In this document: positions 880-57,110 of the stretch, piece after piece
How positions within the stretch are numbered: position 1 is the first letter of the stretch
Layout of the letters: every line of letters begins with the position of its first letter
Assembly (NCBI RefSeq): GCF_988242995.1
Contig: NZ_OZ547043.1
Length of the DNA stretch: 64,000 nucleotides
Reading direction: 5' to 3' (one strand)
Translations under genes and position numbers: made by a program
The notes under the pieces: model-generated
What the model saw: the letters and a program-made list of their open reading frames with translations, nothing else
What the model was told of the DNA's origin: nothing
Databases searched by the model: none

Positions 880-3800
880 ATGGACGTCAGTCGCAGACAA
901 TTTTTTAAAATCTGCGCGGGCGGTATGGCTGGAACAACGGTAGCGGCATTGGGCTTTGCCCCGAAGCAAGCACTGGCTCAGGCGCGAAACTATAAATTAT
1001 TACGCGCGAAAGAGATCCGTAACACCTGCACATACTGTTCCGTAGGTTGCGGGCTATTGATGTATAGCCTGGGTGATGGCGCGAAAAACGCCAGAGAAGC
1101 GATTTATCACATTGAAGGTGACCCGGATCATCCGGTAAGCCGTGGTGCGCTGTGCCCGAAAGGGGCCGGTTTGCTGGATTACGTCAACAGCGAAAACCGT
1201 CTGCGCTACCCGGAATATCGTGCGCCAGGTTCTGACAAATGGCAGCGCATTAGCTGGGATGAAGCATTCTCCCGTATTGCGAAGCTGATGAAAGCTGACC
1301 GTGACGCTAACTTTATTGAAAAGAACGAGCAGGGCGTAACGGTAAACCGTTGGCTTTCTACCGGTATGCTGTGTGCCTCCGGTGCCAGCAACGAAACCGG
1401 GATGCTGACTCAAAAATTTGCCCGCTCCCTCGGGATGCTGGCGGTAGACAACCAGGCGCGCGTCTGACACGGACCAACGGTAGCAAGTCTTGCTCCAACA
1501 TTTGGTCGCGGTGCGATGACCAACCACTGGGTGGATATCAAAAACGCTAACGTCGTAATGGTAATGGGCGGTAACGCTGCTGAAGCGCATCCCGTCGGTT
1601 TCCGCTGGGCGATGGAAGCGAAAAACAACAACGATGCAACCTTGATCGTTGTCGATCCCCGTTTTACGCGTACCGCTTCTGTAGCGGATATTTACGCACC
1701 TATTCGTTCCGGTACGGACATTACGTTCCTGTCTGGCGTTTTGCGCTACCTGATCGAAAACAACAAAATCAATGCCGAATACGTTAAGCATTACACCAAT
1801 GCCAGCCTGCTGGTGCGTGATGATTTTGCTTTCGAAGACGGTCTGTTCAGCGGCTACGACGCTGAAAAACGCCAGTACGATAAATCGTCCTGGAACTATC
1901 AGTTCGATGAAAACGGCTATGCGAAACGCGATGAAACACTGACTCATCCGCGCTGTGTGTGGAACTTGCTGAAAGAGCACGTTTCCCGCTACACGCCGGA
2001 CGTCGTTGAAAACATCTGCGGTACGCCAAAAGCAGACTTCCTGAAAGTGTGTGAAGTGCTGGCCTCCACCAGCGCGCCGGATCGCACAACCACCTTCCTG
2101 TACGCGCTGGGCTGGACGCAGCACACCGTGGGTGCGCAGAACATCCGCACCATGGCGATGATCCAATTGCTGCTCGGTAACATGGGTATGGCTGGTGGCG
2201 GCGTGAACGCATTGCGTGGTCACTCCAACATTCAGGGCCTGACCGACTTAGGTCTGCTCTCAACCAGCCTGCCGGGTTATCTGACGCTGCCGTCAGAAAA
2301 ACAGGTTGATTTGCAGTCGTATCTGGAAGCGAATACGCCGAAAGCGACGCTGGCTGATCAGGTGAACTACTGGAGCAACTATCCGAAGTTCTTCGTTAGC
2401 CTGATGAAATCTTTCTACGGTGATGCTGCACAGAAAGAGAACAACTGGGGCTATGACTGGCTGCCGAAGTGGGACCAGACCTACGACGTCATCAAGTATT
2501 TCAACATGATGGATGAAGGCAAAGTCACCGGTTATTTCTGCCAGGGCTTTAACCCGGTTGCGTCCTTCCCGGACAAAAACAAAGTGGTGAGCTGCCTGAG
2601 CAAGCTGAAGTACATGGTGGTTATCGATCCGCTGGTGACTGAAACCTCTACCTTCTGGCAGAACCACGGCGAGTCGAACGATGTCGATCCGGCGTCCATT
2701 CAGACTGAAGTATTCCGTCTGCCTTCGACCTGCTTTGCTGAAGAAGATGGTTCTATTGCTAACTCCGGTCGCTGGTTGCAGTGGCACTGGAAAGGTCAGG
2801 ACGCGCCGGGCGAAGCGCGTAACGACGGCGAAATTCTGGCGGGTATCTACCATCATCTGCGCGAGCTGTACCAGGCCGAAGGTGGTAAAGGCGTAGAACC
2901 GCTGATGAAGATGAGCTGGAACTACAAGCAGCCGCACGAACCGCAATCTGACGAAGTAGCTAAAGAGAACAACGGCTACGCGCTGGAAGATCTCTATGAT
3001 GCCAATGGCGTGCTGATTGCGAAGAAAGGTCAGTTGCTGAGTAGCTTTGCGCATCTGCGTGATGACGGTACAACCGCATCTTCTTGCTGGATCTACACCG
3101 GTAGCTGGACAGAGCAGGGCAACCAGATGGCTAACCGCGATAACTCCGACCCGTCCGGTCTGGGGAATACGCTGGGATGGGCCTGGGCGTGGCCGCTCAA
3201 CCGTCGCGTACTCTACAACCGTGCTTCGGCGGATATCAACGGTAAACCGTGGGATCCGAAACGGATGCTGATCCAGTGGAACGGCAGCAAGTGGACGGGT
3301 AACGATATTCCGGACTTCGGCAATGCCGCGCCAGGTACACCAACCGGACCGTTTATCATGCAGCCGGAAGGGATGGGACGCCTGTTTGCCATCAACAAAA
3401 TGGCGGAAGGTCCGTTCCCGGAACACTACGAGCCAATCGAAACGCCGCTGGGCACTAACCCGCTGCATCCGAACGTGGTGTCTAACCCGGTTGTTCGTCT
3501 GTATGAACAAGACGCGCTGCGGATGGGTAAAAAAGAGCAGTTCCCGTATGTGGGTACGACCTATCGTCTGACCGAGCACTTCCACACCTGGACCAAGCAC
3601 GCGTTGCTCAACGCAATTGCTCAGCCGGAACAGTTTGTGGAAATCAGCGAAACGCTGGCGGCGGCGAAAGGCATTAATAATGGCGATCGTGTCACTGTCT
3701 CAAGCAAGCGTGGCTTTATCCGCGCGGTGGCGGTGGTAACGCGCCGTCTGAAACCGCTGAATGTAAACGGTCAGCAGGTTGAAACGGTGGGTATTCCAAT

Positions 3801-47468: not shown

Positions 47469-47723
47469 TTAAAGCTGACCGACAGACTTTCTTAACCCGG
47501 TAATATCTCTCTTAGGTGACTCTCCAAACATCCGCGAATATTCCCGACTGAAATGGGATAAGCTTTCGTAACCGACAGCATAGGCTGCAGTGGTGACATC
47601 GTAATGTTCATTCAGCATCAGTCGCCTGGCTTCATTGAGGCGTAGCCATTTCTGATACCGGAGTGGACTCATTCCCGCAAGCTGTCTGAAGTGTTGATGG
47701 AAAGTGGGGGTGTTCATTTGCAC
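47469..47723 (-). pseudogene. yneL: Remnant of an AraC-family regulator (C-terminal HTH only)
   Basis: 84-aa ORF is only the AraC C-terminal HTH domain (LRYQKWLRLNEARRLM...GYESLSHFSREYSRMFGESP); no N-terminal domain ORF upstream. Confidence 0.65.
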
Positions 47724-48003
47724 GCGGTTTGCCAGCCTGACTCTTCAACGCAGGGAAGATGCGGCAAACGGCAAACCTGCATACCAGCCAGCCTATATCC
47801 GGTATGCACAGGCCAATCATGAAAGAGGAGAGGCTTTATGTTCTGGAACCCTGAAGTAATAACGACGACTGGAAAATCGCTTCGCATCACTCAAATTCCA
47901 TTTAACTATTCTGGGTTTGAGGGATATACATAATTGACTTCAGCACCAGAAACAGCATAACAAACTGTTTTAAATGGATATTAATCAAATGGCGATTCAA
48001 ACT

Positions 48004-48038
48004 CACAGTTATGAACTCAGTTTTGGTTCATAACTGTG
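48004..48038. repeat. Perfect 13-bp inverted repeat with 9-bp spacer
   Basis: cacagttatgaac-tcagttttg-gttcataactgtg; a related palindromic 10-mer gttcatgaac lies about 40 nt further on. Confidence 0.8.
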
Positions 48039-48137
48039 TTAAACGCTGTCCATAAATCACTCGATGTTACGCTTATTGGTTCATGAACTGTTCGTTCTAA
48101 TGTTGTGATGTGCGTCAGGTTTTAGTGTTCGGTAATG

Positions 48138-48941
48138 TTACCTTTTACTCGATGATCGATTGTTTAGCACCTCTCCCACAACCGGAGCAGCGGTAAATGC
48201 GTTTGGCCAGCCAGCATAGAAGGCGGCCTGGGTAACGATCTCACCAGCTTCCTCAACAGAAAGTCCATTATCCATTGCTCTGTTAAGGTGATAGCCAATC
48301 TGCGCGCTCTGTCCGGATGCGATTAAGGCGCTGACCGTAATCAGGCTTCTGTCGCGGGGTTTCAGCGCGGGTCTTTGCCAGAGATCCAGGAAGAGTGGAT
48401 CAGCAGTGAATTTAACCAGGCCTGGAGATATTGGGCCAACATTTTTTTCCACTGTTTCTGAACGCTGCTTTTCTGCTTCCTGATTGAGAGGAAGCAGGTC
48501 CGGAGAAGCGTCAGGAAGTGCATCTGCCGTGACGCCACGAGTTTCAAATACTGCTTTGGTCACGCTGACGGCTGACATTGCATTTGGCCAACCTGAGTAG
48601 AACGCCAGATGGGTAATGATTTCTGATAATTCCGCTGGCGTCACGCCGCTATCGAGAGCGACGTCAATATAGTGCTTAAGCTGGGCAGGCTGGTTGCGGG
48701 CAATCAGCATGGCGACGGTCACCACACTACGATCCCTCGGTGAGAGGGCGTCGCGTGTCCACAGATCTTCAGTAATAGCTTCGCGACCAAAGCGCGCGAG
48801 AGCCGGTGAGACGGAACGAATATCAGCTTCCGAAATCGCTGACGGTTCTATTTTCATCATAGCTTTACCTCTTGTTTCCTCAGCATTGGCAAAATCAGAA
48901 ATAACAAGCGACATAGCCGCTGCTGCAAGTACGCTTTTCAT
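48138..48941 (-). CDS. Tandem carboxymuconolactone decarboxylase-like (AhpD-like) protein with predicted signal peptide
   Basis: 267 aa; two repeated modules each with a ...ITHLAFYSGWPNA... type segment (CMD/AhpD fold); N-terminus MKSVLAAAAMSLVISDFANA looks like a Sec signal. Confidence 0.7.
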   Translation of the reverse strand: MKSVLAAAAMSLVISDFANAEETRGKAMMKIEPSAISEADIRSVSPALARFGREAITEDLWTRDALSPRDRSVVTVAMLIARNQPAQLKHYIDVALDSGVTPAELSEIITHLAFYSGWPNAMSAVSVTKAVFETRGVTADALPDASPDLLPLNQEAEKQRSETVEKNVGPISPGLVKFTADPLFLDLWQRPALKPRDRSLITVSALIASGQSAQIGYHLNRAMDNGLSVEEAGEIVTQAAFYAGWPNAFTAAPVVGEVLNNRSSSKR

Positions 48942-48956
48942 GTTAATCCTTACTGG

Positions 48957-49682
48957 TCAACGTTGCTGCTCCTGTTTGATTCCGCCTTTGTTACGAAGAA
49001 ATACCGGTTTTACCGGGATTGCGTCCTTCCTGGCGCTCATATGCGCCGTTTGCCTGAGGTAATCCAGGAAGTGCGGCGTTTGTCGGTGCAGTTGATAATC
49101 CTCCTCACTGGCGTAAATCTCATAGAAATACCAGCGTTTTGGAGTCTCTGAATCTGTACCGGCATACATGGCTAACACGCCTTTCTCTACTTTGAGCGAC
49201 TCGACCATTTCAGGAAGGACGATGTTTCTAAATTCGCTCTGAAATTCAGGCTTTACTTCGACGATCACCAGATTATTGATAGTTCGTTCATTCGGTATGA
49301 TGTGTTTGTCGCCCAGAAACTGTGGCTCCAGGGTAATTTTCTTCTTCCTGTCAATAATGTCAGGTGCACGAGCAGCGAATGCTTTGTATGGGGCGGCATT
49401 GAGATGTTTGCGATAAGCACGCTCATTTTCATAGAGTTCGAACATGAATGCCTTATGTGGATTGTCGCTGTGGTGCAGGGCGTACATCGCCAGCGTACCT
49501 ACTTCATGATCAACCGAAGCGGAAATCGTCTGTCTGGCTACGTCTGCAAAGTCGTTGTCCCGATCGGGTCTGATGCCGAGCTCGAAGATATTCATCTCCG
49601 GCTTATTCGGCGCGTCCGGTTTTGTTGCAAAGACAGGGCTGCTTATTAGCATGCAAATTAAAAGCATAAAAGTCTTTTTCAC
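48957..49682 (-). CDS. Tandem ABM-type (antibiotic biosynthesis monooxygenase-like) protein with predicted signal peptide
   Basis: 241 aa; two halves each with LAMYA...FYEIY / FELYENE... features of the ferredoxin-like ABM fold; N-terminus MKKTFMLLICMLISSPVFA. Confidence 0.6.
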   Translation of the reverse strand: MKKTFMLLICMLISSPVFATKPDAPNKPEMNIFELGIRPDRDNDFADVARQTISASVDHEVGTLAMYALHHSDNPHKAFMFELYENERAYRKHLNAAPYKAFAARAPDIIDRKKKITLEPQFLGDKHIIPNERTINNLVIVEVKPEFQSEFRNIVLPEMVESLKVEKGVLAMYAGTDSETPKRWYFYEIYASEEDYQLHRQTPHFLDYLRQTAHMSARKDAIPVKPVFLRNKGGIKQEQQR

Positions 49683-49797
49683 GATGATCTTTTTACTGAC
49701 ATTACTGTTTAAGACGTTCGATCAACTGGTGCTGGTAGGAACGTAACCGACCGCTACTGGCGCTCTCAAAGACTAGAGGAGGAAAAGTGAATAAGGG

Positions 49798-50817
49798 CTA
49801 TCGCGTCCATACCTGCTTAACATCTTTCGTTTGCGGCGTATTTTGCGCCATGATCCCCGTCAGAACATGCGGCTGGTAGGTTTCTTCCAGAAACTGAATT
49901 TCCTCCGGACTTAGTTGAAGATTTACTGCGTTTACCGCGCCATCGACATGAGCTTTTTTTGTAGCCCCTACGACAGGTGATGTGACTTTTGTCAGCAGCC
50001 AAGCGAGAGATATTTCCGTCATTGACACCAGATGGCGTTCGGCCAGTTCGGCTACACGCTCAATAATGCTGCGATCCTGTTCAGCCGTGCTGTCATATTT
50101 TCCACGCGCATAGTCATCCTCTGTGGCTCGCCGCGTATAGCCTTCTTTACGAGAGAGGCGGCCGCTGGCCAGCGCGCTATAGGGGGTCATTGCGATATTA
50201 TCCTCAGTGCACAGGCCGAAGAGCTCCCGTTCATCTTCGCGCATAATTAGATTGTAGTGGCTCTGTACGGAAACAAAGGGCGTCAGCCCTTCGCGTTCAG
50301 CAAGGGCGTTCGCCTTCGCCAGCTGCCAGGCATAGCAGTTTGAAATACCAACAGCTCGTACTTTGCCAGCAGTAACAGCGGTATGTAACGCTTCAAGCAC
50401 GTCGATAATGGGCGTGTTGTAATCCCAGATGTGGTAGATGTAGAGGTCGATATAGTCCATCCCCAGATTCTTCAGGCTCTGGTCAAGGGATTGAGCGATT
50501 GCCTCTTTTCCGCTGATCCCTCCGGCAATTTGTGCGGGGGTTCGCGGCAGAAACTTGGTGGCCAGGACGATATCATCGCGTTTCGCCATCTCCCGTAATG
50601 CCCGGCCAACGTATCGCTCACTGGAGCCATTCTGGTAGGCTATAGCGGTATCGTAAAAGTTGATGCCCTTTTCAAGGCCATAGCGAATGATGTCGCGGCT
50701 TGCTGTTTCGTCCAGCGTCCAGCTATGCTGACCCGTCGACGGATCGCCAAACCCCATGCATCCCATGCAGATGCGGGAAACAAGTAAGTCACTTTTACCG
50801 AGCCGGGTATACTGCAT
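49798..50817 (-). CDS. Aldo/keto reductase
   Basis: 339 aa; AKR motifs (GINFYDTAIAY, catalytic Tyr/Lys context). Confidence 0.8.
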   Translation of the reverse strand: MQYTRLGKSDLLVSRICMGCMGFGDPSTGQHSWTLDETASRDIIRYGLEKGINFYDTAIAYQNGSSERYVGRALREMAKRDDIVLATKFLPRTPAQIAGGISGKEAIAQSLDQSLKNLGMDYIDLYIYHIWDYNTPIIDVLEALHTAVTAGKVRAVGISNCYAWQLAKANALAEREGLTPFVSVQSHYNLIMREDERELFGLCTEDNIAMTPYSALASGRLSRKEGYTRRATEDDYARGKYDSTAEQDRSIIERVAELAERHLVSMTEISLAWLLTKVTSPVVGATKKAHVDGAVNAVNLQLSPEEIQFLEETYQPHVLTGIMAQNTPQTKDVKQVWTR

Positions 50818-50819
50818 TG

Positions 50820-51392
50820 TTATTCTCCCTCTGGATTATTCACGACGGAATTGAGCAGTTCGACAAGCCTTGAAGCGTGTTCCCGGGCAAGCGTTTTTTG
50901 CTGCGCGATTTTGTCGGCATCCCGGTCGGCATAGCTGATACCGCAGGTATAAACCGGCGCCAGCAGCTCAAGATTGCACAGCCTTGCCGTGGTTTCGAAC
51001 GGAATAAGATACTCTTCAATGGTATTGCCAAAGAAACTGTCGACGGTATAGAGCTCCTCTGGCGCTCCCGTTGTAAAGGAGAGGATCAGCTTTTTACCGC
51101 CCAGTTTCGCCGTTGAGCCATGCGCGAAGCCGTGAACAAAGACCTCGTCCAGCCATTTTTTCATTAATCCTGGCAGCCCATACCAGGAAAAAGGGAACTG
51201 CCAGACAATCACATCGGCCCTGAGCAGGCTTTTCTGCTCCGCCGCGATGTTGAATTTGCCATCCGGATAGAGCCTGTCCAGACGACGAATCTCAACATCG
51301 GGAAGGGCGGTCTCCACTTCATCAAGAATAGTGGCATTGGCGACGGAATGGGTAAGCTCAGGATGACCTGAAATAACAAGGATATTTTTCAT
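50820..51392 (-). CDS. Flavodoxin-like NAD(P)H:quinone oxidoreductase family protein
   Basis: 190 aa; MKNILVISGHPE... N-terminus and WQFPFSWYGLPGLMKKWLDEV typical of NAD(P)H dehydrogenase (quinone) family; 3-nt gap to the downstream AKR gene. Confidence 0.75.
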   Translation of the reverse strand: MKNILVISGHPELTHSVANATILDEVETALPDVEIRRLDRLYPDGKFNIAAEQKSLLRADVIVWQFPFSWYGLPGLMKKWLDEVFVHGFAHGSTAKLGGKKLILSFTTGAPEELYTVDSFFGNTIEEYLIPFETTARLCNLELLAPVYTCGISYADRDADKIAQQKTLAREHASRLVELLNSVVNNPEGE

Positions 51393-51542
51393 TTCAATCA
51401 GTTAAACATCTTTGGTGAATATTAAATCCAGTATAGAGTGACAACATTATTTTTTTAGAGCAGTAAAGGCTCATTCACTTTTAGGCAAAAACTAATAATT
51501 GTCGGCTGATCACAATGTGCTCAGTCATCATGAAACGGTGAA

Positions 51543-52220
51543 CTAAACCGTGATGCCCAGTAAACGTTCTGCATTGCGAAACGCGATGGCCTCTTTTTCA
51601 GCCTTGTTGACGGGCAGACTGTCTATAAAGGTTTTTACACCGTCCAGGGGTCTGATAGGGATAACCGACGGAGAACAGGATCCTTTCAGCACCCATTAAC
51701 GCGTAGATAAACTGGAAGTGCGGCAGTGTTAGCATATGACGGGGTAACGTAAACGTGTTCCTGGAAGGTTCTCGTTAGCGTGCGTGACAGACCCGTTGCA
51801 GCCAGTGCTAGGCTGTCATCAAGACGCTGGAGCCAGAAGGGTAACATCTCCCCCCAGTGGCCACTGATTACCTGCAGGTTGGGATATTTATCAAATGCGC
51901 CCGATAACATCAGCCGCAACAAATGGATCCCCGCTTCGTGATGCCAGCCCCAGGCAAACATAGAAAGCCTGGCGTTGACCTCTGCGCTGAAGCCCGTGAA
52001 GTAGGCCTGCTGTACGCTTTTAAGCGGTAACCCGGGATGAAGATAGAGTGGCACATTCAGTTTATTAAAGCGGGAAAGCAGGGAGTCGGTCAGGATTATG
52101 ACCATCAGCGACGGTTTTCCCCCTGTCGCCAAGGAAAGGTGCCTGCTCAAGCGCAACAGGCATACACGCGCGCCCTAACTCGCTGTCGAGATAATTTTCT
52201 TCGAGGCAAATGATTTTCAT
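51543..52220 (-). pseudogene. Frameshifted amidohydrolase-2 (TIM-barrel metal-dependent hydrolase) gene
   Basis: Coding potential is split over three frames: MKIICLEENYLDSELG... (from ATG at 52220), a 156-aa middle ORF (51686-52156) containing ISGHWGEMLPFW, and a C-terminal piece ...AEKEAIAFRNAERLLGITV* ending at 51543. Confidence 0.55.
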
Positions 52221-52322
52221 ATTCTCACCATTCATACAAAGCAGTAAAAGTGATACAGATTAGAATCACCCGGAACAGCCCGTTCGTGTGTGTCATTCAT
52301 GACAGTCTGTTCCGGACGGGCT

Positions 52323-53270
52323 TTACACCATCGGTTTTTCCCAGGCGCCTCGTGTATCCACTCTGGTCTCTGCGGCGAGTTGTTCCAGCAGGATGATTTC
52401 CTCATCGCGTAACTGGATGTCTGAAGCGCAGGCGGCGTCCAGAACGTGATGGACTTTAGTCGCACCAACGAGGGGAAGGGTACCTTTCACAATAGCCCAT
52501 GCGATGGATATCTGTGCCACGCTGGCATTCCTTTCGGCTCCCATTTTTTTCATGGCGGCGGTTAGTCTTTCTATCTGCGGCAGTACGGCGTTATAACTTT
52601 CGGCCCGGCCACTCCCGGCAGGCATGGGATGATTTGAATCATAACGACCACTGAGCGCGCCTTGCTCCAGGACCATGTAAGCAAAGAACGTGATGTTATT
52701 TTGTCGGCAATAATCAAGGATCCCGGCCTCTTCAGAAGCGCGATAGAGCAGGCTGTAGTGATTTTGTACTGCACTGAGGGAATAACCGGAAGCGTTAAGG
52801 ATTTCATTGGCGCGTCTGATTTGTGCCAGATTGTGGTTGGAAACACCTACGCGTTTTACCTTACCGCTTTGTAAAAGTGGGATCAGTCCTGGCGTCCATT
52901 TTTCGACGTCGAGGGGATTATGGATCCAGTAGATATCAATCGCGTCCACGCCCAGGCGCCCAAGGCTGGCCTCAAGCATATCGCTGACAGGCTGCGCAGA
53001 CTGCTTGTCCGCAATCTGCGGCGTGAATTTGGTGGATAAAATTATGTTCTCGCGGGGAAACTGACGGACTAATGCTCCCAGCGCAGTCTCGGAACTCCCC
53101 ATACCATATACTGCTGCGGTATCCCAGAGATTGAGGCCCTTACTCATGGCCGCAGTGAACACTTCTGCCATCTGAGTATCAGAAAGATGATTACCAAAGA
53201 CGGTGTCGCCGCCGGCAAAGCCTGTGCCCCAGGACCATGTACCTAGTGCGACTGGAGGTAGTGTTTTCAT
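52323..53270 (-). CDS. Aldo/keto reductase
   Basis: 315 aa; AKR motifs (LWDTAAVYG, IDIYWIHNP). Confidence 0.8.
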   Translation of the reverse strand: MKTLPPVALGTWSWGTGFAGGDTVFGNHLSDTQMAEVFTAAMSKGLNLWDTAAVYGMGSSETALGALVRQFPRENIILSTKFTPQIADKQSAQPVSDMLEASLGRLGVDAIDIYWIHNPLDVEKWTPGLIPLLQSGKVKRVGVSNHNLAQIRRANEILNASGYSLSAVQNHYSLLYRASEEAGILDYCRQNNITFFAYMVLEQGALSGRYDSNHPMPAGSGRAESYNAVLPQIERLTAAMKKMGAERNASVAQISIAWAIVKGTLPLVGATKVHHVLDAACASDIQLRDEEIILLEQLAAETRVDTRGAWEKPMV

Positions 53271-53343
53271 ATTCAGCTCCTGAAAAAAGGCCGGATCGTG
53301 GCTGACTTAAACCGGCCAAGTAAGGTGAGTAACGATGAATTAA

Positions 53344-54033
53344 TTAAGCTGTCCGGCGGAGTGCATTTAACAGCGCCACACCAACCCCATGTGCTGAAGC
53401 GGGATTCTGCCCCGTGATAAGGCGATCGTCGGTAACCACGTTTTCAGACCAGTTTGGAGCTTCATGATAAAGCGCACCATGCTCGCGAAGTGCGGTTTCA
53501 AGCAGGAAGGGAACCACATCTGTTGTGTGAACTTCTTCCTCTTCCTTGTTGGTAAAGGCCGCCACATTTTTCCCTTTTATCAGGTATTCGCCGCTACTGA
53601 GTTTTGCGTCAACCAATGCCGCAGGCCCGTGGCAGACGGCTGAGACAATCCCATCACTTTCATACACTTCGCGGATAATACGCTGGGCATCCTGATTATC
53701 ACGGAAATCCCACATGGTCCCATGACCACCTGCAAAGAAAACTGCGCTGTAATCGGCACCTTTCAGCTCGGATAACGCAGGTGTTGTTGCCAGGCGCTGC
53801 TGAAAATCGGTTTCGTTCCAGTACCAGGCGTTAACAGGGTCGCTGAGGTCAAATCCATCCACCGGTGGCTGCCCCCCGCGAATACTGGCTATTGTTGTTT
53901 TTATTCCGGCATCTTCCAGTACTTTCAGCGGATGAGTCAGCTCGGCCAGGAAAAAACCGGTTGGTACACCGGATGCGCCTTTAATCGGATGGCTGGAAAC
54001 GACACATAGCACTGGTTTATATGCAGGTTTCAT
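53344..54033 (-). CDS. DJ-1/PfpI (class I glutamine amidotransferase-like) family protein
   Basis: Roughly 229 aa; nucleophile-elbow-like AVCHGP; start uncertain (track ORF extends to 54045). Confidence 0.75.
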   Translation of the reverse strand: MKPAYKPVLCVVSSHPIKGASGVPTGFFLAELTHPLKVLEDAGIKTTIASIRGGQPPVDGFDLSDPVNAWYWNETDFQQRLATTPALSELKGADYSAVFFAGGHGTMWDFRDNQDAQRIIREVYESDGIVSAVCHGPAALVDAKLSSGEYLIKGKNVAAFTNKEEEEVHTTDVVPFLLETALREHGALYHEAPNWSENVVTDDRLITGQNPASAHGVGVALLNALRRTA

Positions 54034-54041
54034 ATCGGTCC

Positions 54042-54353
54042 TCACTCTTTATTTTTAAATTCATCGGCGAAGAGATTTTCCCAGTTAATAAAGGAGCCAA
54101 GCGGTATACACTCGAAGCTTAGTAAGCCTGCTTTTGCCAACGGGAATTCGGCCATAACGTTCATCGCTTCATCGACAGAGTCACATTCAAGAAAAATAGC
54201 GACGCCAGGTCTGTCCTGACGGAAGTAGATGTCGCGGATGAAGCCTGATTTATACAATCCCCAGGCGTGCAGCGCTTCAGCGTTGAGGTGCGGAGCATAT
54301 TTCTCCAGCGATGCTCCAGGGGCAGGGATATCCAGACATAAAATTCGCATCAT
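54042..54353 (-). CDS. Small alpha+beta-barrel protein, possibly muconolactone-isomerase-like
   Basis: 103-aa ORF first in the operon; weak pattern similarity to muconolactone isomerase and other dimeric alpha/beta-barrel proteins; assignment tentative. Confidence 0.45.
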   Translation of the reverse strand: MMRILCLDIPAPGASLEKYAPHLNAEALHAWGLYKSGFIRDIYFRQDRPGVAIFLECDSVDEAMNVMAEFPLAKAGLLSFECIPLGSFINWENLFADEFKNKE

Positions 54354-54489
54354 AGTCTCCTGAACTCAGGTCGTTGTAGAAAGAGACTAAAGTATAAGAG
54401 GCGTATTTCAGGAAGATTAGAGGGTCATTGACTTAAGCATTTTTAGACTGTACTTAATAATCAGGCGAGAATTGCTTTAGGAAAACATT

Positions 54490-55389
54490 ATGAATAACGC
54501 TCTTTATAACCAGATTCGCATCTTCCAGAGCATTGCGCGGGAGGGCAATATTTCGGCAGCCGCAAGGAAACTGGAAATTACGCCTCCCTCCGTCAGCAAT
54601 GCACTAAAGCTGCTGGAAGAGTATATCGGCCATCCGCTTTTTGTGCGTACGACCCGCCGTATAGAGCTGACGGAAACCGGTCAATTATTGCTGGAACAGA
54701 CCGCTGCGGCGGTGGAGTCGCTGGAAAACTCACTTGAAAGCATTCGCGACCAGCATCAGGAGCCCTCTGGGATGGTGCGAATTACGCTCTCGCGTTTTGC
54801 CTACCTGTTAATTCTTAAGCCTGCGATGGCAGAATTCTGTCAGCAATATCCGGGTATACAGTTAGAAATTTCGGTCTACGACGGTACCGTGAATATCATC
54901 AAAGAGCGTTTTGATCTGGGGATCCGTTTTGGCGATATTCTTGAGGGAGGGGTGGTGGCCCGACCGTTAATGAAACCGTTTCGTGAAGGATTATATGCAT
55001 CCTCAGCGTATCTCTCCCGACATGGAACGCCTGAAGTGCCGGCAGATCTCTGTCATCACCAGCTGATTGGTTACCGTTTTATCACCAACAACCGCATCCT
55101 TCCGCTGCTCCTGAACGATCGCGGTGAGCAGTTGACCGTTGAGATGCCGGGGCAGTTAATCAGCAACGATATTGACGTTATGGCAGACGGGATCCGTAAC
55201 GGGCTGGGAATTGGGCGCTTGTTTGAGCCTGTCTGGCAGTTACAGCCGGACAGGGAGCGCTTTATTCCGGTGATGGAGAGCTACTGGAAAACCTACCCGC
55301 CAGTGTATCTCTATTACCCCAAAAACGCGGGTAAAACGAAAAGAGTGAAGGCCCTGATTGATTTTCTGATATCCACTACGGGGCGATAA
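54490..55389 (+). CDS. LysR-family transcriptional regulator
   Basis: 299 aa; N-terminal HTH (ISAAARKLEITPPSVSNALKLLEE) and LysR substrate-binding domain; divergent from the redox operon. Confidence 0.85.
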   Translation: MNNALYNQIRIFQSIAREGNISAAARKLEITPPSVSNALKLLEEYIGHPLFVRTTRRIELTETGQLLLEQTAAAVESLENSLESIRDQHQEPSGMVRITLSRFAYLLILKPAMAEFCQQYPGIQLEISVYDGTVNIIKERFDLGIRFGDILEGGVVARPLMKPFREGLYASSAYLSRHGTPEVPADLCHHQLIGYRFITNNRILPLLLNDRGEQLTVEMPGQLISNDIDVMADGIRNGLGIGRLFEPVWQLQPDRERFIPVMESYWKTYPPVYLYYPKNAGKTKRVKALIDFLISTTGR

Positions 55390-55787
55390 AGACGATAACG
55401 CCTCGTTCAGTATGGAGATGCATCGAATGGCATTGTGAGTTTTTTTTCACAGATGGGCGTAATCGTCAGTGGATTTTACATACGAGGATAGCGCCCACAT
55501 ACTGACATCATTAATTAACGTTGGGTGAGGTTTACCGGGGGGGAGGGGAACGCGAACCAGGAGATGGAGGTGGCCAATCTGGTACGAACCGCCGCGTAGC
55601 TTGCACGGCAAGAGCTGCTGACTGATTCATCAGTTAAGCTACTGAAAGAGCGGAACACATGAACTTAAGAACAAACCACCACATTTAACATAATATACAT
55701 TATGCGCACCAGCATAAACCAAGGAAGAATCCAGTCGTTGGCGGCCATAATTGTCCTGCTCATTAACAACGACCAAAACCCCATATC

Positions 55788-57110
55788 TTACTTAATACCG
55801 TATTCTCGGCTTAACCGGCCGTGCAACCTCAACACATTGGTTTCAACTGCCGTCACCACGTTCTCCGGAAAATCTGTCGGTAACGAAGTCTTCACGTTAT
55901 CCAGTGCTGCCGGAATCATTCTGGCAAAGTAATTCAGGATTTCATGCATCTGCACTTCCGGGAATCTCAGCACCTTTGCTGTCGCCAGAAAATGTCGCGG
56001 ATAAATTTTATCGATTGCCGTTTTTTTGCCTTTGGATGCGTTAAGCCCCATTGCCAGTTTGAGATCGCTGATGTGTATTCCTGCGCCACCCAATACCGGA
56101 AATGCTGAAATGATGTCGTAAAATGGCGTGAGTCGATAACTGCCGCCAGCCTGAATAAATACGGAGAAGTTTTTTGCATGGCCATCCGTTGCGCCAATCA
56201 ACCACTGGAACACCTGAAACTTCATAAAATCATAGCGATCTTTCAGCGCCTCGCTGGACCCCATCAAAAAAGCCATGATCCGCGCGATGCCTGGGCCTCC
56301 ATCTGATTCATATTTCACCGATGAAGGTAAACCGAATGTCTGACACATATCCTCCTGTGGCAAGCGAAGTAAAACCGTTCGCTCAGCATTCCAACGCCTG
56401 TCAAAACGTTCGACCGCTAACGCGCGCACATTTCCCGCTTTAATGATTTCTGCGTCCGGCACATTCAACCCAAGTTCTTTCGCCAGCAGCAGACAGTAAT
56501 ACTCATTATCAACGCTTTGGCTGAGATCGAGCGTCGCATTGGGCTGCCTGATTTCGCCAATCGGTAATTTAATGATGTGCGTCGTCGGCGTTATTCCTTT
56601 CGGAATGCACCAGTCATTGCCTATTCTGAGCAGCGCTGTCTTCTCCTGCGCGCCAGCAACCGAGATGCGAAAGTCATTTTCTTCTCTAATCATGCCCAGA
56701 GGGATATCTGCTTTATAAGCCGTTAATACTTCTTCAAGCCTGGCTTCAGTGAGCTGTTCCCATGCCATTATCGGGCGCGTTATGGTTTCATTTTCGGGTA
56801 ATAACGTTACGGCACCAACGCTATCTCGCCCTATTTCTGACAATAAATCAAACGGTTGTCTGGATTTAGCATGATAACGTTTAACGATCCGGTCACGTAC
56901 AATCGGGCTATCGGGTAGCAGGTTATCGAAGAAGTTAAATACAGCATCAGAGGTGATATTCCCCCTCTGCAATGGCAGCGAAAGTGATAACGGTCTGGCA
57001 TAACGGTTGGCTAACCACTCCGGTGCATACTTAAAGGTGTGCGCGCCATTGGCTAACTTCGTTAACTCGCCTACCCGCTGGTTGTTCATCCAAGTGACAA
57101 GTTTAGGCAT
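55788..57110 (-). CDS. hipA: Serine/threonine kinase toxin HipA
   Basis: Track ORF 55788-57167 with start MPKLVTWMNNQRVGELTKLANGAHTFKYAPEWLA (440 aa); start overlaps the hipB stop by 1 nt. Confidence 0.93.
   Translation of the reverse strand: MPKLVTWMNNQRVGELTKLANGAHTFKYAPEWLANRYARPLSLSLPLQRGNITSDAVFNFFDNLLPDSPIVRDRIVKRYHAKSRQPFDLLSEIGRDSVGAVTLLPENETITRPIMAWEQLTEARLEEVLTAYKADIPLGMIREENDFRISVAGAQEKTALLRIGNDWCIPKGITPTTHIIKLPIGEIRQPNATLDLSQSVDNEYYCLLLAKELGLNVPDAEIIKAGNVRALAVERFDRRWNAERTVLLRLPQEDMCQTFGLPSSVKYESDGGPGIARIMAFLMGSSEALKDRYDFMKFQVFQWLIGATDGHAKNFSVFIQAGGSYRLTPFYDIISAFPVLGGAGIHISDLKLAMGLNASKGKKTAIDKIYPRHFLATAKVLRFPEVQMHEILNYFARMIPAALDNVKTSLPTDFPENVVTAVETNVLRLHGRLSREYGIK

Follow-up and report, generated by a model that had tools for sequence, protein, structure and literature searches.

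A multiply lesioned amidohydrolase gene remnant in a LysR-controlled redox operon of Escherichia coli

The operon and its surroundings

The DNA analysed here, referred to below as the window, is a stretch of 64,000 nucleotides from contig NZ_OZ547043.1, and it carries next to hipBA an accessory E. coli operon under the control of a LysR-family regulator (loci and proteins used for comparison are given with L and P numbers). The regulator, characterized by the list of open reading frames (ORFs), orthologue comparison and family search, is encoded divergently on the plus strand (54490-55389). The genes on the minus strand code for a 103-aa protein with no family match (54042-54353), a DJ-1/PfpI protein (53344-54045), aldo/keto reductase 1 (52323-53270), the amidohydrolase remnant that is the subject of this study and the fourth member of the operon (51543-52220), a Flavodoxin_2 NAD(P)H oxidoreductase that is KefF-like below the equivalog cut-off (50820-51392), aldo/keto reductase 2 (49798-50817), a tandem-ABM protein (48957-49682) and a tandem-CMD protein (48138-48941). 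Apart from the remnant, all eight operon genes are of full length when compared with their orthologues in L004 and L012, with which they share 83-99% amino-acid identity. The NCBIfam search returned no equivalog-level name for any operon protein, and the full-text literature search on this gene combination and locus found no relevant description; "redox operon" is a fair label for it.

The preliminary description had regarded the operon as otherwise intact, which holds for the eight full-length neighbours but not for the layout as a whole. Comparison with L004 and L006 revealed a second deletion scar, marked in the window by ~92 bp left over from the 3' end of a second Flavodoxin_2 gene (49693-49784, minus strand). 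At ~49784, between the genes for aldo/keto reductase 2 and the ABM protein, ~952 bp are missing that comprise a DUF1330 gene and the 5' 514 bp of the second Flavodoxin_2 gene and are present in L004 (10809-11760). The same layout at the ~49784 scar was observed in E. coli L012, whose amidohydrolase gene is intact, and partly decayed versions of this interval were seen in L015 and L016.

Several further features of the surroundings were recorded. The ABM (MKKTFMLLICMLISSPVFA...) and CMD (MKSVLAAAAMSLVISDFANA...) proteins of the window start with signal-peptide-like sequences, and a part of the pathway may be periplasmic, judging by these starts. Overlapping inverted repeats lie at 52270-52322 (arms 52270-52283/52302-52315 and 52277-52286/52313-52322), immediately after the stop codon of aldo/keto reductase 1 and outside the remnant; this cluster, which may form an intercistronic stem-loop, one without an Rfam match, is retained in L001-L006, whereas L012 and L015 have different sequence in its place. 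Window positions ~47469-47735 (minus strand) correspond, by locus offset only, to the site of a helix-turn-helix pseudogene annotated in the RefSeq records of L002 and L003 as "incomplete, missing N-terminus", with the CMD gene on one side of it and the fimbrial operon on the other.

Extent and reading-frame layout of the remnant

The ORF list, translation and orthologue alignments delimit the remnant of an Amidohydro_2 (PF04909) gene at 51543-52220 on the minus strand, its ends being the ancestral ATG (52220-52218) and the ancestral TAG (51545-51543). Its length is 678 nt versus 1035 nt in intact orthologues, a difference of 357 nt. The coding potential for an amidohydrolase had been described as spread over three reading frames in exactly this interval, and the ORF list together with the three-frame translation bears this out: from 52220 to 51543 the minus strand is read in frame A, then B, then C and then A again, with segments that account for the whole remnant (132+1+351+1+87+1+102+3 = 678 nt).

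The first segment (52088-52220, frame A, with the coding part 52220-52089) holds codons 1-44 and the first base of codon 45, and its peptide is MKIICLEENYLDSELG...GHNPD. The second (51737-52087, frame B) represents codons 164-280 with the peptide DSLLSRFNKLNVPLYLHPG...GHWGE...HVYVTPS, in which the strand-5 His and the GHWGE motif are kept. Codons 282-310 follow in the third segment (51649-51735, frame C; MLTLPHFQFIYALMGAERILFSVGYPYQT), and codons 311-344 with the stop codon in the fourth (51543-51647, frame A; LDGVKTFIDSLPVNKAEKEAIAFRNAERLLGITV followed by the stop).

The middle fragment alone scores above the gathering cut-off of the Pfam Amidohydro_2 profile (PF04909; E=9.8e-9, 35.8 bits, cut-off 26.4), with a match that spans profile positions 128-192 of 289 only. 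The stitched translation of all segments retrieved 740 homologues, the best of which are intact proteins of 344-349 aa with 77-83% identity and E-values down to 5.6e-133; the match of the stitched remnant to these proteins is far beyond chance.

Signals other than coding sequence were searched for as well. Promoter-like sites in the remnant region numbered 0, where shuffles average 1.1; two terminator-like sites were found there, no more than in shuffles. The Rfam search over 47500-56000 at E<=0.1 gave nothing, and the repeat search gave only short chance-level repeats in addition to the inverted-repeat cluster described above. The Rfam, site and repeat searches thus lend no support to a hidden structured RNA, promoter or terminator in the remnant.

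Frame-breaking lesions

The lesions were placed by base-level alignment to intact single-frame genes from the Logan contigs L004, L005 and L006 and the NCBI/ENA contigs L012-L016. Such an alignment had been proposed for locating the indels, and it identified a 356-bp deletion, a 2-bp deletion and the insertion of a single C; the main lesion is not a homopolymer slip, and only the third of the three lesions falls in a homopolymer. The alignment to intact single-frame orthologues also demonstrates that the frame changes are real, as expected for the frameshifted pseudogene that had been postulated.

The 356-bp deletion, with its junction at 52088/52087 (52085-52088), has removed codons 45-163. 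In the window the junction reads CCTGACC/GACTCCCTG, while the intact genes have CCTGACCGAAGCC...(codons 45-163)...CATCCTGACTATGACTCCCTG at the deletion site. A 2-bp GA microhomology at 52087-52086 is common to both breakpoints, so that the breakpoint can be placed on either side of it, and an imperfect CCTGAC repeat stands beside both breakpoints in the intact genes. Because 356 = 3x119 - 1, the frame is shifted at the junction, and translation from the native ATG therefore ends after 51 codons at a TAA TAA (52067-52062).

The second lesion is a 2-bp (GG) deletion in codon 281 with its junction at 51737/51736 (51736-51737), by which TCA GGT ATG became TCA T ATG. The third, at 51647-51650, is the +1 C insertion, a run of four C in place of three in the intact genes (ACC CTG to ACCCCTG), which brings the reading back to frame A. 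With a net indel of -357 nt, the last segment of 34 codons thus regains the first frame. Judged from the aligned sequences, this return of the frame at the 3' end would be without functional meaning, since every intermediate frame runs into stop codons; by chance alone, ~1 in 3 cases would give a multiple of 3.

Conserved residues and predicted fold

The stitched translation was aligned with 97 full-length homologues, and 138 columns of this alignment reached a conservation of 95% or more. Of these, 40 have no counterpart in the window, namely 39 inside the deletion and Gly281, and a further 4/138 carry substitutions of near-invariant residues there (H9N, W33R, P257A and D305G). His9Asn (CAT to AAT, base 52196; 52194-52196, minus strand, as for the following three) affects the strand-1 E-E-H motif at a position that is invariant in the 97 homologues. 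Trp33Arg (TGG to AGG, base 52124; 52122-52124) and Pro257Ala (CCA to GCA, base 51808; 51806-51808) lie in invariant columns, the latter being private to the window among 12 sequences compared. Asp305Gly (GAT to GGT, base 51665; 51664-51666) affects the strand-8 DYPY motif. The His9 and Asp305 columns are 98-100% conserved in the 97 homologues, and the window has Asn and Gly there; His180 and His240 are kept in the window, but out of frame with the start codon. Another invariant column is substituted in the E. coli allele of L010 (S280P). Taken together, the substitutions at invariant columns (H9N, W33R, P257A, S280P and D305G) argue for relaxed constraint among the E. coli alleles.

The AlphaFold2 model of an intact E. 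coli orthologue, P0125, has a mean pLDDT of 92 and a pTM of 0.92 and represents a high-confidence alpha/beta fold that is consistent with a TIM barrel, with strands at residues 4-10, 78-83, 117-119, 147-150, 177-180, 236-239 and 275-278. According to this model, the deletion of residues 45-163, which amount to about a third of the protein, would have cost the barrel its strands 2-4 together with the associated helices. In the HMMER alignment to the 5-carboxyvanillate decarboxylase LigW (4inf), His180 (PLYIHP) and Asp305 (DYPYQ) line up with the LigW motifs. We take the DYPYQ Asp of LigW opposite Asp305 to be the metal-ligand Asp314, and, going by the structures of LigW and gamma-resorcylate decarboxylase, His180, Asp305 and the strand-1 Glu/His are presumably metal ligands. 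By this analogy, two presumed metal-ligand positions are mutated in the window (His9Asn and Asp305Gly).

The window copy is hence neither a complete enzyme with one frame and a barrel of ~340 residues, given three frame-breaking lesions and the deletion of residues 45-163, nor does it retain the full set of presumed metal and catalytic residues made up of the strand-1 Glu/His, the strand-5 HP His, the GHxGE His after strand 6 and the strand-8 DYPY Asp. Because of the frame breaks and the lost barrel strands, no functional enzyme is expected from it. The remnant combines homology to the family with lesions that disable it, as the comparison with intact copies of the same operon shows, and we regard it, with very little doubt, as an ordinary pseudogene, non-functional and multiply lesioned, of a metal-dependent TIM-barrel Amidohydro_2 enzyme from the ACMSD/LigW-like decarboxylase branch.

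Intact orthologues and the lost function

As indicated by the names of cluster members, intact orthologues of 344 aa exist in Enterobacter asburiae, E. bugandensis, E. cloacae and E. roggenkampii as well as in Klebsiella pneumoniae, K. aerogenes, Pantoea, Serratia ficaria (P0004) and Escherichia whittamii. A few E. coli assemblies also carry the intact gene (WP_097420437.1, which is P0125 with 344 aa, and WP_250393300.1). The operon with the intact gene was found in L004, L005, L006 and L012-L016, and in the E. coli assemblies that carry the intact gene the operon is embedded in different mobile DNA, flanked by resolvase, integrase or phage-tail sequences. These varied mobile flanks therefore mark the operon as a horizontally mobile cassette, of which the hipBA-adjacent E. 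coli copy carries the deletion.

Some of these copies have peculiarities of their own. In L015 (9001-10176; P0122, 391 aa) and in L012 upstream of 9001, an N-terminal extension of ~47 aa (MKSVTLPERRDLIKKGVGALAWAAL...) resembles a twin-arginine export signal; the extension is absent in the window lineage, which has unrelated sequence upstream. In L006 (4214-5263; P0001), the full-length gene for 349 aa has CAT changed to AAT at the strand-5 His (PLYLNPG), and on the same contig the genes for aldo/keto reductase 1 and the ABM protein are each split in two. L006 thus suggests that the operon is decaying independently in another host.

P0125 matches Pfam Amidohydro_2 with 117.8 bits over profile positions 24-289. 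Its closest solved relative is an uncharacterised amidohydrolase of S. aureus (3nur, E=1.4e-71), and it matches non-oxidative aromatic-acid decarboxylases with E=1e-35 to 1e-47, among them LigW (5-carboxyvanillate; 4inf, 4icm) and the decarboxylases of 2,3-dihydroxybenzoate (6m53), gamma-resorcylate (2dvt, 3s4t) and salicylate (6jqw). By analogy with these enzymes, a plausible ancestral role is the decarboxylation of a hydroxy-aromatic acid, whose phenol or quinone product would then be handled by the reductases. The step now missing from the pathway in the window strain probably served to decarboxylate or hydrolyse an aromatic acid and thereby to supply these reductases.

Distribution and order of the lesions in E. 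coli

The population set consisted of 5,426 complete E. coli genomes, and the 930-bp interval was present in 472 of them, so that ~9% carry the island. When the intact gene was used as query, it was covered to at least 80% in 0/5,426 genomes. Diagnostic short queries detected the exact junction of the 356-bp deletion in 460 genomes and the +1 C allele in 129, and the 2-bp deletion was detected in 313 with a query in which every 28-mer includes the junction. The lesions are thus real in the population rather than an artefact of one assembly. It had been suggested that the pathway is partly decayed in this particular strain; the loss of the amidohydrolase step stands, and its restriction to the strain does not, as all complete E. 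coli genomes with this locus have the decay in common.

The sets of genomes that carry the three lesions are nested by size (460 > 313 > 129), and nine aligned E. coli alleles fit the same order. L002 and L011 have the 356-bp deletion only, L007-L010 have the 356-bp and 2-bp deletions, L003 has both of these and a 26-bp inverted duplication, and the window and L001 have both deletions and the +1 C; in a fifth allele (L017/L018), another 91 bp adjoining the junction are deleted, which results in an in-frame ORF of 200 aa. The same 356-bp junction was common to every E. coli remnant allele examined, which speaks for a single founding deletion, after which the alleles went on decaying independently. 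On the basis of this alignment, at least five remnant alleles can be distinguished, and decay is furthest advanced in the one that the window carries. Within this interval, the window and its closest relatives among the complete genomes share 99.7% identity; the differences, at 52196, 52170 and 51808, are all substitutions. Among 10 E. coli remnant alleles pN/pS was 0.39 (14 nonsynonymous and 11 synonymous changes; 25 sites), and the neighbouring intact genes gave 0.12-0.99 on very few sites; the remnant does not stand clearly above them, and polymorphism at so small a number of sites does not in itself demonstrate relaxed selection.

These observations can be arranged in a history. The founding event would be the single 356-bp deletion evident in the alignments, presumably mediated by the 2-bp microhomology, and once selection was gone sublineages would have gained the 2-bp deletion, the +1 slip in the C-run and the substitutions at invariant residues.

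Individual alleles showed features of their own. In L003 (NZ_CP145671.1, strain S1-ZIM-01-A) the 26-bp insertion inside the remnant, opposite window position ~51708, repeats the 26 bp before it exactly, as their reverse complement. The L017/L018 allele (3001-3603; P0163) is widespread, being listed in 863 collection blocks; here 356 and the adjacent 91 bp are deleted (447 in total), strand 5 and its His are gone as well, and the 200-aa ORF is annotated as amidohydrolase or hypothetical protein. The remnant is separated from the Flavodoxin_2 gene by a spacer of 150 bp (51393-51542), which occurs in two sharply distinct haplotypes with roughly 25 differences, one represented by the window, L001, L003, L007-L009, L012 and L015 and the other by L002, L011, L006 and L004, with L010 mixed. 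The spacer haplotypes suggest that recombination events had their breakpoints at the remnant's 3' end.

Alternative interpretations

The remnant could have been kept for a new role, either as a truncated protein encoded by the ORFs of 139, 187 or 200 aa or as a spacer or regulatory element for the downstream reductases. Long ORFs, from which truncated products may be expressed, are indeed kept in some alleles (187 aa in L002 and L011, 200 aa in frame in L017/L018), fragments are called as coding sequences (CDSs) by PGAP, the 200-aa in-frame allele is widespread with its 863 collection blocks, and in none of the ~470 genomes has the remnant been wholly deleted. However, the fragment ORFs differ by allele, and in the window lineage they are disrupted even more, the reverse of what conservation would produce; residues at invariant positions are substituted, and it is normal that a few hundred bp of dead DNA persist where a pseudogene is recent. 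We consider such a role very improbable.

Similarly slim is the chance that the 3' frame was restored by selection in two independent allele lineages (-357 in the window type; -447 in L017/L018 with the 200-aa ORF). Such selection would have favoured either a truncated half-barrel with a new role or translation across the remnant, by which the four redox genes downstream are spared Rho-dependent polarity. Were this true, the locus would hold a gene that is being remodelled and not simply decaying.

The explanation of the frame changes as sequencing or assembly errors in an otherwise intact gene, which the preliminary description had offered as an option, has almost nothing left to it. The +1 C (51647-51650) sits in a homopolymer of 3-4 bases, a typical error site, and two single-base differences from the nearest relatives (52170 and 51808) are private to the window. 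The main lesion, on the other hand, is a deletion of 356 bp and no homopolymer error, and the exact lesions recur in 460, 313 and 129 independently assembled complete genomes, with none of the 5,426 intact. Errors are still conceivable at the two private SNPs alone, which would leave the conclusion unchanged.

Programmed ribosomal frameshifting or recoding that joins the three frames into one functional protein is likewise practically dismissed: the net change of -357 nt is a multiple of 3, the first and last segments share a frame and a second E. coli allele (356 + 91 = 447 bp deleted) is also in frame, but even perfect read-through would yield a protein that carries H9N and D305G and is without residues 45-163 (3/8 barrel strands and 39 conserved columns), the places at which the frame shifts are scars of mutation that vary between alleles and do not occur in the intact single-frame orthologues, neither a conserved slippery site nor a frameshift common to the orthologues was found, TAA TAA closes the first frame, and a net multiple of 3 has the chance expectation given above.

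Annotation, significance and comparison with known systems

In the RefSeq records of L001, L002 and L007-L011, PGAP annotates the remnant as a 51-aa "hypothetical protein" and a 139- or 187-aa "amidohydrolase family protein", listed as ordinary WP_ CDSs, sometimes with a further 50-aa "amidohydrolase family protein" CDS. Among the copies seen, only that of L003 (S1-ZIM-01-A) is flagged by PGAP as a pseudogene ("amidohydrolase family protein; internal stop"). The remnant is a textbook case of gene decay that is already visible in public annotation, and its biological importance is very small. Its practical consequences lie elsewhere. The fragments should become one pseudogene in the RefSeq records of E. 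coli. The three nested lesions (the 356-bp, then the 2-bp deletion, then the +1 C) provide ordered markers of sublineages among the ~9% of E. coli that carry the island. For studies on the function of the LysR/DJ-1/AKR/flavodoxin-like/ABM/CMD cluster, the intact copy from Enterobacter, Klebsiella or the rare E. coli assemblies is preferable because the common E. coli version is without the amidohydrolase step.

The closest counterparts of the remnant are its intact orthologues, in which the gene likewise lies between those for aldo/keto reductase 1 and the Flavodoxin_2 oxidoreductase. The retained DNA of the window is 91-99% identical to theirs, and the stitched protein 77-83%. Unlike them, the window copy lacks codons 45-163 and has two more frameshifts and four near-invariant substitutions, and it cannot encode the enzyme. 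With the ACMSD/LigW-type decarboxylases and 3nur the relationship is that of the intact protein: P0125 matches them over residues ~50-343, and its HP, GHxGE and DYPY motifs align with those of 4inf. The subfamily of P0125 has no NCBIfam equivalog match, however, and the window copy is only a remnant of it. Finally, the remnant resembles ordinary bacterial pseudogenes formed by deletion and frameshift in its broken frame, the loss of conserved residues and lesions that vary between lineages, and differs from them in that most RefSeq records list its fragments as real proteins and not as one pseudogene.
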